Shown in pieces: positions 3,875-50,221 of a DNA stretch of 64,000 bases. This DNA is from Somniosus microcephalus. Its lineage: Eukaryota. A program made the translations under genes and the position numbers. Each line of letters begins with the position of its first letter. The first letter of the stretch is position 1. The notes under the pieces are model-generated. The model had not been told where the DNA came from and ran no database searches. It was given only the letters and a program-made list of their open reading frames with translations. The stretch covers positions 56,916,001 through 56,980,000 of the forward strand of contig JBMRGM010000035.1 in NCBI GenBank assembly GCA_052327205.1, given 5' to 3'.

Positions 3875-3950
3875 GGCTCGTTGGTCTAGGGGCTTGATTC
3901 TCGCGTCGGATTGATGAGCATAGAATATGCGTGAGATCCCGGACGAGCCC
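3875..3950 (+). tRNA. tRNA-Pro(CGG) pseudogene with 17-nt intron and T-arm deletion
   Basis: GGCTCGTTGGTCTAGGGGCTTGATTCTCGC GT CGG A [TTGATGAGCATAGAATA] T GCGTGAG ATCCCGGACGAGCCC. Confidence 0.85.
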
Positions 3951-3989
3951 TCATTTTGCTCGCGACTTTTGACCTTGAATTCAAAACAA

Positions 3990-5570
3990 AGAAACATAGA
4001 AGATAGGAGCAGGTAGGCCATTCGGCCCCTCGAGCCTGCTCCGCCATTCAATGAGATCATGGCTGATCATCCAAAATCAGTACACTGTCCCTGCCTTCTC
4101 CCCATATCCCTTGATCCTTTTAGCCTTAAGAAATATATCTAAATCCTTCTTGAATATATTTAATGAATTGGCCTCAACTGCCTTCTGTGGTAGAGAATTC
4201 CACAGGTTCACCACTCTCTGGGTGAAGAAATTCCTCCTCATCTCTGTCCTAAATTGTTTACCCCTTATCCTTAGACTGTGACCCCTGGTTCTGGACTCGC
4301 CCGCCATCGGGAACATCCTTCCTGCCTCTAGTCTGTTAGAATTTTATAAGTTTCAATGAGATCCCCTCTCATTCTTCTAAACTCTAGCGAGTATAAACCC
4401 AATCGAACCAATCTCTCCTCATACGTCATTCCTGTCATCCCAGGTATCAGTCTGGTGAATCTTCGCTGCACTCCCTCAATGGCAAGAACATCCTTCCTCA
4501 GATAAGTCGACCAAAACTGCAGAAAATACTCAAGGTGTGGTCTCACCAAGGCCCTGTACAACTGCAGCAAGACATCGTTTTTCCTGTACTCGAATCCTCT
4601 CGCTACGAAGGCCAACATACCATTTTCCTTCTTAACCGCCTGCTGCACCTGCATGCTTACCTTCAGCGACTGGTGCACAAGGACATCCAGGTCTCGTTGC
4701 ACATCCCCTTCTCCCAATCTATTGCCGTTCAGATAATAATCTGCCTTCCTGTTTTTGCCACCATAGTGGATAACCTCGCAATTATCCACATTATACTGCA
4801 TCTGCCATACATCTGCCCAATCACCCAACCTGTCCAAATCGTACTGGAGTTTCTCAGCATCCTCCTCACAGCAGACACGCCCACCCAGCTTTGTGTCATC
4901 TGCAAACTTGGAGATATTACATCTAGTTCCCTCGACCAGATCATTAATATATATTGTGAATAGCTGGGGTCCTAGCACTGATCCCTGCGGTACCCCACTA
5001 GTCACTGCCTGGCACTCGGAAGAAGAGACGTTTATTCCAACTCTTTGCCTCCTGTCTGCCAACCAGTTCTCTATCCAAGTCAGTACCTTGCCCCCAATTC
5101 CATGTGCTTTAACTTTACACGCTAATCTCTTATGACAGACCTTATCGAAAGCTTTCTGAAAGTCCAAATACACCACATCCATTGGTTCTCCCTTATCTAC
5201 TCTACCAGTTTCATCATGGAAAAATTCCAGATTAGTCAATCACGATGAACCTTTTGTAAATTCATGTTGACTTTGTCCGATCCCATCACTGTTTTCCAAG
5301 TGCTCTGCTATTACGTCTTTTATAATGGACTCTAGCAGTTTCCCCACTACCGATGTCAGGCTGACCGGTCTATAATTCCCCGTTTTCTATCTACCACCTT
5401 TTTTGAATAGTGGGGTAAAATTAGCTACCCTCCAATGCATGGGAACTGTTCCAGAATCTATAGAATTTTGGAAGATGACCAGCAAAGCATCTACTATTTC
5501 TAGCACCACTTCCTTAAGTACCCTAGGATGTAGATTATCAGGCCCTGGGGATTTATCGGATTTCAATCCC
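3990..5570 (-). mobile_element. CR1 LINE, 5'-truncated (RT domain and 3' tail)
   Basis: ORFs 4328-5239 (DFQKAFDKV, PQGSVLGP, FADD) and 4077-4316; CTATGTTTC-type tail at about 3990. Confidence 0.95.
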
Positions 5571-5775
5571 TTTGAAATATTTGGAAAGATAAAAGAGAAG
5601 TTTCCAAATCTATCCAAGTGAATTTCAAGTGCTTTGGGAAGAGGGTCAGTGCAAATATTTTGGATCAGAGGCAATCTCTGCGGGCTACACTTTGTATCAA
5701 CGAGTTTTTTCGGGAAGTTGAATGCGATATTCACCCAGTTCTGGATTTTCATCTAACTGAAGTAGATAAATGAAC

Positions 5776-5985
5776 GAAAGACTTGCATTTATTGAGCGCC
5801 TTTTACCACCACCGTACGTCCCAAAGCACTTTGCAGCCAATGAAGTACTGTTGCCTATCCCTGTTGTAATGTAGGAAACGCGGCAGCCATTTTGCGCGCA
5901 GCAAGCTCCCACAAACAGCAATGTGATAATGACCAGTTCATCTGGTATTTGTTGTTATGTTGATTGAGGTATAAAAATTGGCCAG
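5776..5985 (-). mobile_element. SacSINE1-like DeuSINE, 3' part
   Basis: Matches the 3' half of the full copy at 51826-52293 (GCGCGCAGCAAGCTCCCACAAACAGCAATGTGATAATGACCAG). Confidence 0.85.
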
Positions 5986-6510
5986 AATGATTGATGTCCC
6001 AATTTTATTCAGTATACAGACAGTCATTAATATATATAATGATGGAGACTGGGAAGGACACCGTTTTCACACCTACCCGCAATGATCACATGATCCTTGA
6101 GGAAGGCCAATCAGCCCATTCTAATACAGCCCTCCAGAGCATCCCTAGTCTTCACCTCATTGTTTAATCCAGTTGTGTCCTAAATCATTCCGGGGCTTTC
6201 ACCACCACTGCTCTGCCTGGAGTCCATTCTAAGTGTTGATCATTCTCCTGATGTCAGTCCTAAAGTGTTCACTTTTACTTTTGAGGCTGTTTCTTCTTGC
6301 TATTTCTCCCACAATGTAATCTTGCATTCTTGTAGATCTCTGAAATACCATGTCGCAGATGCCTCCGTTCTAGTCTGAAGATTTCGATTTTAACTCCCAG
6401 CGGTCAGGGGTAAATTCCCTCCAGTCTATGTTTGTTCTATAGGATCGAGGCGTGTCTGGTACTGCTGCTCGCTCCTCTGGCCGCTGTGCAGTATTGCACC
6501 ACCTGCTCCC

Positions 6511-48738: not shown

Positions 48739-48849
48739 GCCACACACCAACTGCTGTTCTTCTGCTCTTTCCACAGCAAAGTAACGCACGTCACCGCTTA
48801 GAAAAAATGGATTTTTGGAGAAGGCCAAAATCAGCACTGCCAAAAATTA

Positions 48850-48902
48850 TGACAGCGGTGGAATTCGACCCATGTCCCATAGCGACTGTAGCCTTTATCC
48901 AG
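48850..48902 (-). tRNA. tRNA-Leu remnant
   Basis: TGACAGCGGTGGAATTCGACCCA...AGCCTTTATCCAG; paralog of 20904. Confidence 0.6.
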
Positions 48903-48999
48903 AGTGGGAACTGATGCAACCGCAGTTACATTTAAGAGGATTGTAGCCCTTTCACACGAGAATAAACTCACCCCTGGAGAGTGATAAAGAAGAAAAAAA

Positions 49000-49073
49000 A
49001 GGCCCCGCTGGGAGTCAAACCCAGGATCTCCTGTTTACTAGACAGGCGCTTTGACCAGCTAAGCCACGGAGCC
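49000..49073 (-). tRNA. tRNA-Thr(AGT), near-intact (B box GGTTTGA)
   Basis: Reverse complement GGCTCCGTGGCTTAGCTGGTCAAAGCGCCTGTCTAGTAAACAGGAGATCCTGGGTTTGACTCCCAGCGGGGCCT, followed directly by a T-run terminator. Confidence 0.93.
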
Positions 49074-50162
49074 AAATTAGGCCTCCGTCGCTCGCCTCCA
49101 CTCACTGATATCTATCAGCTACCGGTCACTGACTGCTGGAGTCTGAGGCCGTTTTGTATTGATCCATCTTTCTTGTCCGCCTTGTGTCCCGATGCTGTCT
49201 GTATCTCTCGCTGCGATGATCTCAGTGTCAATCTGTGAGTTGATTCTTAATGAATACCTGTGTTTGTGTCTTACATGAAATAAATGAGGAGATCAGAAAA
49301 TTGTTCCTCTGACACTGGGGAACTAATGAGCTAACATTCATGACAAGATTTTGTTTGTTGTGATGCAGCAAATACAATATTCCATCTTGAATGATTTTGG
49401 TTCAATTCTGTGCAAAAAGAAACGTTGACCCCAACGTGTTTCCAATCGGCCGCCTTTTAATTTGACGTCACAAAAGCCACCATTGCACCTCAAGGTGATT
49501 CATAACTAACAAACAGAGAAGTCAAGCAGTGAAAGGGTATTTGTAGAAAGGGTTGTGAGACTGTGGAATGCACTGGCCCAGAGCAGCAGATTTAAAACAA
49601 GGTATAAACACCGGCAGGGTGTGGGAGGAAGGGGAGAGAGAGACAAGAGAGACACAGGAAAGATCACGTTGGAAGTCACTGGCCCCGAATCTGCTTTAAA
49701 TCCCCCCACTATATTTAAACACATTTAATGTCATATTCATACATTGATGCCTTTGAGCAATATATAATTTGTAACGAGGTCGCTGGTCTAAAATAACTGC
49801 TTTATATATTTGGACCCACCCGCTGTGTTTAGGCTCTACCCTGAATACTTATCTCCAACCTAGAATCTGCTTATAATCTAGAGATTAGGTCTCAGCAGCC
49901 GGCGGGCAGGGAGCAGAGGTTGAGGCTGATCTGTGTCATGTGGGAGCAGAACACAATATCCCTGCTGCTTATTTTCATTATCCTGCACAATTTTCGATAC
50001 TGTTCTCAACATCTTACACTCCTCTAAAATATCGGAGGGTTTAGTTTATTGTAATGATGATCGCTGCGGCTCTTTTCAATTTTATGAATTCGTAGCAAAT
50101 TACATATCTCCAAATCAGTGAAATCGTCATTGCCGAGATTAAACACTCAGAGCAGGGTCAGC

Positions 50163-50221
50163 GGCTCTTTGGTCCAGGGCTGTGATTCTCGCTTAGGGAA
50201 TTTATATCAATTAATGCGAGA
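50163..50221 (+). tRNA. tRNA-Pro(AGG) remnant with 16-nt intron, 3'-truncated
   Basis: GGCTCTTTGGTCCAGGGCTGTGATTCTCGC TT AGG G [AATTTATATCAATTAA] T GCGAGA. Confidence 0.85.

Follow-up and report, generated by a model that had tools for sequence, protein, structure and literature searches.

Animal tRNA introns are generally held to occur in only four anticodon families, and passages of PMC12530127 describe metazoan tRNA introns as essentially absent outside Tyr-GUA, Ile-UAU, Leu-CAA and Arg-UCU. A stretch of 64,000 nucleotides from Somniosus microcephalus (assembly GCA_052327205.1, contig JBMRGM010000035.1, positions 56,916,001 to 56,980,000 of the forward strand; hereafter the window) was described in a first-pass annotation as holding twelve tRNA-Pro copies with an insert beside the anticodon, which raises the question of whether these inserts are introns and whether they belong to a working gene family. 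Our reading, to which we give a probability of roughly two in three, is that the window contains dead relics of a tRNA-Pro/tRNA-Arg(TCG) family that was amplified in tandem and has an insert between positions 37 and 38; intact members of the family elsewhere are probably transcribed by Pol III, and TSEN and RTCB probably splice their transcripts into normal tRNAs.

Insert-bearing tRNA relics in the window

All twelve of the listed tRNA-Pro copies carry an insert between positions 37 and 38, directly after position 37, of 16-19 nt in eleven copies and 10 nt in one, and none of the twelve is intact, in agreement with the first-pass annotation. The tRNA features of the window are as follows.

3875..3950, plus strand: tRNA-Pro relic (CGG); insert 3911-3927 (17 nt); part of the T-arm deleted
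9261..9348, minus strand: tRNA-Pro relic (anticodon now AAG); insert 9297-9312 (16 nt)
18793..18880, plus strand: strongly decayed tRNA-Arg(TCG)-type relic; insert present
20081..20153, minus strand: tRNA-Pro relic (TGG); insert 20118-20127 (10 nt, shortened); most of the 5' exon gone
26208..26299, minus strand: tRNA-Pro relic (AGG); insert 26245-26263 (19 nt); in a decayed Pro-Arg-Ser array unit
26466..26556, plus strand: tRNA-Arg(TCG)-type relic; insert at 37/38
27866..27929, minus strand: tRNA-Pro relic (AGG); insert 27877-27893 (17 nt); most of the 3' exon deleted
30015..30085, plus strand: tRNA-Pro relic (anticodon now TGT); insert about 30051-30066 (16 nt); 3' exon decayed
36901..36990, plus strand: tRNA-Pro relic (TGG); insert 36937-36954 (18 nt)
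42667..43057, minus strand: single tRNA-Pro relic; a repeat of about 310 bp has inserted at the anticodon and divides it in two; insert 42691-42706 (16 nt)
43385..43473, plus strand: tRNA-Pro relic (anticodon now AGA); insert 43422-43438 (17 nt)
44482..44541, plus strand: tRNA-Pro relic (AGG); insert 44494-44510 (17 nt); most of the 5' exon lost
46140..46227, minus strand: tRNA-Pro relic (anticodon now TAG); insert 46176-46191 (16 nt)
46486..46567, minus strand: tRNA-Ser(GCT), nearly intact and intron-free; the array unit's third type of gene
50163..50221, plus strand: tRNA-Pro relic (AGG); insert 50199-50214 (16 nt); only 7 bases of the 3' exon left

The anticodons AGG, TGG and CGG are all represented, as had been claimed, but the description of every copy as still Pro holds for only seven of the twelve (AGG in four, TGG in two and CGG in one), the other five now reading AAG (twice), AGA, TAG and TGT. 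Likewise, the entry formerly given as 42667/43022 is a Pro copy with an insert, but it is one gene interrupted by a repeat. Exon decay is extensive: in the best halves, 21-32 of 36 exon bases still match, and half of the gene is missing in several relics, while an A at intron position -3 is kept in 11 of the 12 inserts. Run on the window, neither ARAGORN at default settings nor Rfam called any of the twelve Pro relics, and relaxed ARAGORN returned 198 calls, mostly spurious; tolerant BLAST with intron-bearing genes found 11 places in the window versus none in each of 20 shuffles. The Arg relic at 26466..26556 and the Pro relic at 26208..26299 lie head to head, which is the arrangement of the intact arrays, and the region around the 9261..9348 relic recurs with 90-100% identity in at least 40 copies, most of them at 39-62 Mb of contig C35. 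The window is a set of dead, re-amplified relics of a gene family with intact members at other places along this chromosome.

Genome-wide copy number and array organisation

The first-pass annotation had left it to a genome-wide count whether intact Pro genes carry the insert. A pattern search returned 1,144 Pro anticodon-arm matches, 1,135 with an insert versus nine without, and 288 Arg-TCG matches, 287 with an insert versus one without; reversed patterns, the control for the Pro search, gave no matches, and a second intron-free Pro pattern gave eight genome-wide. In 748 Pro copies the match is exact over the intron end and on through base 28 of the 3' exon, and both the pattern search and the sampled copies indicate that the intron-bearing family has intact members. 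Most intron-bearing copies lie in tandem arrays of 1.6 kb Pro-Arg-Ser units, and every sampled array copy of Pro and Arg-TCG has the intron. Only eight pattern matches for insert-bearing Pro fall on contigs C1-C34. C17 holds a cluster of its own, unrelated in flanks and introns, and among its genes is a near-perfect one followed by a T4 terminator. Even sampling along C35 from 64 to 176.5 Mb covered 20 stretches, none of which gave a tRNA call. The introns in Arg-TCG genes, the tandem-array organisation and the re-amplified nature of the window relics had been overlooked in the first-pass annotation.

The genome has two tiers. Beside the arrays there are some ten intron-free Pro genes at dispersed positions and a single intron-free gene for Arg-TCG. 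Removal of the insert leaves a sequence identical to the intron-free genes. Perfect intron-free Pro genes with T-run terminators were found for AGG (C1, C10 and C14), TGG (C11) and CGG (C14). The earlier proposal that proline decoding as a whole requires tRNA splicing in this lineage draws on the predominance of inserts among the Pro matches, but it fails as stated because perfect intron-free genes, eight or nine in number, cover all three anticodons, and we regard it as extremely unlikely.

Resemblance of the inserts to TSEN introns

A single insert at 37/38 was present in 113 of 113 sampled Pro copies and 54 of 54 sampled Arg copies. At the anticodon-intron pair, Pro copies have T32 (112/113) and A at -3 (110/113) and Arg copies have C32 (46/54) and G at -3 (50/54), although the -3 counts are not independent because the sampled copies are related. 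The pair tracks the host tRNA, with U32 facing A-3 in Pro and C32 facing G-3 in Arg. The Pro introns fall into ten sequence families sharing the one site, and the commonest member of each has a purine at -3 (10/10), a richness equalled at position -4. For the main AGG alleles, the arm folds at lowest energy into the textbook anticodon-intron helix of 5 bp, with a bulge of 3 nt marking the 3' splice site, whereas TGG and Arg arms have a lowest-energy structure in a shifted or different register rather than the canonical helix. Human TSEN requires the mature domain and the anticodon-intron pair, according to passages of 10.1101/2020.08.03.234229. Judged by their sequence, the inserts look like true TSEN introns, and the first-pass interpretation gains partial support from the canonical site, the TSEN-intron features and the intact members of the family.

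That all twelve window copies are broken, and that tRNA-derived repeats are abundant in sharks (as in the elephant shark tRNA-Ala example), would suit a damaging, unspliced insertion in a SINE or pseudogene family. Against this stand complete exons on both sides of the insert, a tandem layout and the lack of a LINE-type tail, as well as ten insert families at one site and two unrelated tRNA bodies whose unrelated inserts lie exactly at 37/38 with a -3 base that pairs their own position 32. Exon conservation (see below) already largely refutes this explanation, which we consider very unlikely. A tRNA-derived SINE, which would show dispersed copies with a tRNA head joined to an A-rich or LINE-derived tail, was rejected as a candidate on the tandem 1.6 kb units, the whole genes, the shared flanks and the mere eight pattern matches on C1-C34.

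Exon conservation between and within arrays

Units of TGG and AGG arrays are 79-82% identical and their spacers differ by about 19%, yet their consensus Pro exons differ only at the wobble base, for which the chance is about 5e-7 at a uniform rate of 18.5%. In TGG arrays, Pro is perfect in 16 of 29 copies and has at most one change in 26 of 29; in 31 copies of the Arg gene from the same units, an internal control, 7-13 of the 73 bases are changed. A compensatory change from C4-G69 to T4-A69 is present in one Arg class. We infer from these sequence comparisons that purifying selection acted on the exons of the array masters.

Introns that were real in once-working masters could nevertheless now sit in arrays that are silent satellite DNA, amplified by unequal crossing over, with the few intron-free genes supplying all tRNA-Pro and tRNA-Arg(UCG). 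Exons are identical to those of intron-free genes in 35 of 113 sampled Pro array copies and perfect in 35 of 71 sampled pattern matches, so that about half of the latter are imperfect; degenerate subtypes are co-amplified, one of them making up 10 of 18 copies of class AGG-A, and none of 12 copies in two AGG-B stretches is perfect. Variation within classes is 2.2-3.5% for exons versus 2.3-6.6% for flanks, the exon figure being biased downwards by the exon filter, and per-copy selection is therefore weak at best. Closeness of exon to flank variation favours silent arrays, as does the amplification of wholly dead units such as the window at least 40-fold. Against silence, the exons stayed constant across the spacer divergence until recent amplification while the neighbouring gene decayed, internal promoters are intact in hundreds of copies, and a lone intron-free Arg-TCG gene would be a thin supply. 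Degenerate genes are also present in other arrays of the same genome.

Terminators and RNA reads

A T4 lies within 7 bases downstream in 48 of 113 Pro copies, while in 59 of 113, those of the AGG classes, the next 80 bases contain no T4 and only an interrupted T-run. This too fits silent arrays; an interrupted T-run of the AGG-class shape terminated transcription in vitro (PMC3141230). Among Arg copies, 45 of 54 have T4 or longer at about 20 bases downstream. RNA reads were taken from two runs of a related organism B (X21 and X22; 24% and 31% of the runs) and compared with the array spacer only. Spacer depth was low, patchy and dominated by a SINE fragment, with 28 of 30 bins covered thinly in X21 and 13 of 30 in X22; a one-sided pile beside the Arg gene end comprised 24 reads with about four starts, and the molecule ends did not lie on a T-run. 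The spacer reads are indistinguishable from DNA carry-over, and a spacer without clear signal would also suit silent arrays, which on balance we hold to be unlikely. On our preferred reading, the intact array genes would be transcribed by Pol III, their pre-tRNAs would be cut by TSEN, and the exons would be joined by RTCB into normal tRNAs.

Relation to known intron-bearing tRNAs

Like the canonical vertebrate intron-bearing tRNAs (Tyr-GUA, Ile-UAU, Leu-CAA and Arg-UCU, spliced by TSEN and RTCB), the shark family has one short intron at 37/38, and in both, as far as passages of PMC10275265 and 10.1101/2020.08.03.234229 describe the former, position 32 pairs with the third-last intron base and intron sequences diverge. 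The hosts differ, being Pro (AGG, TGG and CGG) and Arg-TCG in the shark, and these are not an anticodon shift of Arg-UCU because their bodies are identical to those of intron-free genes. Two further amino-acid families with four anticodons would thereby join the list in a vertebrate, with introns in more than 99% of pattern-matched copies. Older human annotations may contain one intron-bearing Pro-AGG prediction.

Fungal tRNA-Pro and Arg-UCG genes have introns at the same site as the shark genes, and yeast Pro-UGG is among them, but their tRNA bodies and intron sequences are different. In a listing of introns across eukaryotes, the axis labels of Fig. S7 of PMC12168002, which gives no values there, place UCG, AGG and UGG at positions 8-10. 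A metagenome scan found at least 121 non-vertebrate intron-bearing loci; the 80 of 121 examined yielded 86 genes, none with a vertebrate tRNA body, and only 62 of the 86 Pro introns have a purine at -3, which counts against this feature as a mark of the family. Unlike the fungal comparison, the shark genome combines intron-free and intron-bearing genes of identical mature sequence, making the gain or retention of tRNA introns, and their role, testable within one genome.

Shark genomes have many clustered tRNA loci with expanded intron-containing ones, according to parts of the Squalomix preprint (10.1101/2025.06.08.657570), whose text there gives no isotype, array structure or intron test, although its Figure 3A or supplements may split the loci by anticodon. 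The Pro/Arg-TCG arrays probably make up a large part of that intron-rich signal and are a likely source of it.

A possible two-tier tRNA supply

Clusters alongside solitary genes occur in this genome for Pro, Arg-TCG, Arg-ACG and Cys. The same layout, large clusters versus solitary genes per anticodon, characterises the maternal-type clusters on zebrafish chromosome 4, for which passages of 10.1101/869651 report no intron marker, whereas the shark arrays are intron-bearing. By analogy, we tentatively guess that the arrays may be a high-demand supply for the egg or early embryo. A fuller version, which we find somewhat doubtful, would have sharks use a second, array-encoded tier for eggs and early embryos, in which the Pro and Arg-UCG supply is entirely intron-bearing, with the soma relying on the few intron-free genes. 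If so, TSEN activity would control the decoding of proline and CGA codons at a single stage, free or circular introns of a few sequences would come from more than 1,000 genes, and the same mature tRNA with and without an intron would offer a natural paired test of the role of tRNA introns in a vertebrate.

Other isotypes were searched by pattern for inserts of 10-24 nt. No Lys genes of this kind were found, a blank that does not prove absence; two matches for Arg-ACG/CCG and Trp-type genes were both mutated Arg-TCG copies, and two for Val, Gly and Asp were chance-like, from a motif with no positive control. Intron-bearing Ile-TAT, Arg-TCT and Tyr-type genes are also present in the same genome.

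Decayed tRNA genes and mobile elements in the window

The twelve tRNA-Pro copies listed in the first-pass annotation were all recovered with an insert directly after position 37 (16-19 nt in 11 copies, 10 nt in one), and all are degenerate as it had stated: no copy still works as a gene, halves have mutated or been lost, five no longer have the Pro anticodon, and one is interrupted by a repeat of ~310 bp. A tolerant BLAST search found 11 Pro places in the window versus none in 20 shuffles. The window further contains remnants of Arg-TCG and Ile-TAT genes with introns, as well as of Ser, His and Thr genes without them. 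ARAGORN called intron-free Tyr-GTA and Ile-TAT genes (48667-48738 and 61188-61262); intron loss was rejected for both, which are anticodon mutants of a His-type and a presumably Thr-type body, the latter label agreeing with the array tRNA calls. Because five regions of the window align with intact array units at 70-79% (11 alignments, each 300-900 bases long) and its 9.2 kb region recurs in at least 40 copies at 90-100% identity, chiefly at C35:39-62 Mb on the same contig, the window is an old, dead portion of a tRNA cluster, a portion that was itself re-amplified. Long segmental copies of this decayed cluster lie within C35:39-62 Mb, several pairs being ~58 kb apart.

Mobile elements in the window:
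54526-60640, plus strand, near-complete GC-rich L1-clade LINE with ORF1 and with an ORF2 for endonuclease, RT and zf-RVT that carries a single stop near 58608
11747-13356, minus strand, broken LTR-retrotransposon-like integrase and RT-RNase H frames

The LINE looks like what we take to be a Tx1-type element, a group of which some members target tRNA arrays, and its 3' limit falls ~550 bp short of a tRNA relic. Among 31 protein hits to a LINE frame of the window, many of them without a name, the named best ones come from ray, skate, catshark and chimaera, and two weaker named hits belong to other groups. The source is therefore, with good support, a cartilaginous fish and presumably a shark.

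Intron-bearing Pro and Arg-TCG genes dominate genome-wide

A pattern search of the 6.4 Gb assembly, in which the window lies at C35:56.9 Mb, returned 1,135 Pro anticodon arms with a 10-24 nt insert (control, 0) versus 9 without; a second pattern recovered 8 of these 9, and two further variant Pro copies called by ARAGORN adjoin insert-free matches. Eight insert-bearing matches fall on contigs C1-C34 and the remainder from C35 onward, C35 and later contigs being counted together. The intron end followed by 28 exact 3' exon bases is present in 748 Pro copies. Arg-TCG gave 287 matches with an insert versus a single one without, which is intact. The insert thus prevails among Pro matches, but perfect intron-free genes exist for AGG, TGG and CGG (on C1, C10, C11 and C14), and the proposal that proline decoding in the whole organism depends on splicing is not borne out. 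No comparable insert family was found genome-wide with the Lys pattern or the Arg-ACG/CCG/Trp patterns.

The array unit spans 1.6 kb and contains Pro and Arg genes head to head plus a Ser-GCT-type gene. Such arrays were found between 0.8 and 28 Mb of C35, and none was present in 20 stretches sampled from 64-176.5 Mb. In one class, AGG-A (L106, L107, L115), the higher-order repeat consists of two units, one pairing an intact Pro with a weakened Arg and the other an intact Arg with a degenerate Pro; the Ser gene of this class now bears a GTT anticodon after drifting and is wrongly called as Asn. At C17:66.734-66.751 Mb (L284, L286) lies a separate cluster, a candidate older source locus. Its five intron-bearing Pro genes show three types of intron and have unrelated flanks; one of them is near perfect and has a T4 terminator.

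Exon conservation and pairing support true introns

The sample of 113 Pro and 54 Arg copies was drawn from 40 ten-kb stretches plus 30 short loci and leans towards intact copies, as many loci lie near earlier matches and the filter admitted ≤6 mismatches per exon. All sampled copies carry the insert. Pro copies have A at the third-last intron base (-3) in 110 of 113 cases and T32 in 112 of 113, while Arg copies have G at -3 in 50/54 and C32 in 46/54; the base at -3 therefore tracks the host tRNA. All ten Pro intron families, among them the C17 cluster and lone copies from C13, C20 and C34, have a purine at -3. This evidence is supportive but soft, since the copies share descent, position -4 is equally rich in purines, and among non-vertebrate Pro introns only 62/86 have a purine at -3. 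The main AGG alleles are predicted to fold into a canonical helix with a 3-nt bulge, whereas the best predicted folds of TGG and Arg alleles differ from it.

Exon conservation is the stronger evidence. Identity between TGG and AGG units is 79-82% and their commonest introns agree at 11/18 bases, yet their consensus exons differ solely at the wobble base and equal those of the intron-free genes. Of the 29 Pro copies in TGG arrays, 26 have ≤1 change; the neighbouring Arg gene, with 7-13 changes, provides a yardstick of neutral decay in the same units. A compensatory pair in the acceptor stem was seen in one Arg class. Counting against true introns, exons are perfect in 35/71 pattern-matching Pro copies (19/45 in the ten-kb stretches alone), which loosely extrapolates to ~500 perfect copies; 10/18 AGG-A copies are of a degenerate subtype, two stretches of AGG-B yielded 0/12 perfect copies, within-class variation in exons (2.2-3.5%) is barely under that of flanks (2.3-6.6%), and no T4 terminator follows the genes of the AGG classes. 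These classes have an interrupted T-run instead, and in human genes a run of similar shape worked as a terminator in vitro (PMC3141230).

A putative splicing route and its origin

Array anatomy, counts, the 32/-3 pairing and the identity of the spliced form to intron-free genes were computed directly. It is established that internal promoters are read by Pol III, that TSEN, which recognises the mature domain, requires the anticodon-intron pair (position 32 with -3) for the 3' cut, and that RTCB ligates (PMC10275265, PMC10485636, 10.1101/2020.08.03.234229). Intact array copies would likewise be transcribed by Pol III, cleaved by TSEN and ligated by RTCB, a path to which we assign a probability of roughly two in three. 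By analogy with the zebrafish maternal tRNA tier (10.1101/869651), we would guess that the arrays form a maternal or high-demand tier; its Pro and Arg-UCG supply would then be fully splicing-dependent and that of the soma would not. Since ten intron families of divergent sequence occur at several loci, the Pro intron, whether gained or retained, is older than the present arrays. Pro and Arg-UCG anticodons are also intron-rich in other eukaryotes (PMC4090602, PMC12168002; metagenome scan).

The array unit is shared with relatives, judged on its spacer: contigs of organism E cover 28/30 spacer bins in pieces 84-90% identical, and organism D contributes two pieces at 96-98%. Part of one unit is present in 17 runs from 7 organism labels and 8 studies, three labels having shares of 0.31-0.61. 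RNA reads, compared with the spacer alone, gave no clear signal.

Many shark tRNA loci with introns are already in print (Squalomix preprint, 10.1101/2025.06.08.657570), the identity of these tRNAs not being found in its text as distinct from its figure and supplements; metazoan tRNA introns and elephant shark tRNA-derived repeats are treated in PMC12530127 and PMC8450103. In the accessible literature, which excludes subscription journals and GtRNAdb, we found no description of vertebrate introns in tRNA-Pro or tRNA-Arg-UCG. Older human annotations may list one stray Pro-AGG intron prediction. The observation of Pro inserts is real and extends more widely than the first-pass annotation saw, and its weight would grow were the arrays shown to supply spliced tRNA in a stage-specific manner.

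Arrays of other tRNA genes

Other contigs carry intron-free arrays of Arg-ACG (1,134 Arg-NCG matches without intron across the genome) and of Cys, so arrays are general in this genome and the intron is, among the tRNA types tested, confined to Pro and Arg-TCG. The intact tRNA-Cys(GCA) genes lie in a 1.59 kb tandem array at C24:42.9-43.2 Mb (L061-L089). At C106:0.71-0.86 Mb (L310-L314), 1.25 kb tandem units contain a decayed, intron-bearing Tyr-type gene together with Arg-ACG, Met and Ala genes, and C7 (L307) holds an older copy of this unit. Two identical tRNA bodies, which we take to be Trp-type, lie 26 Mb apart on C4 (L304, L305) and carry the anticodon CCG in place of CCA.
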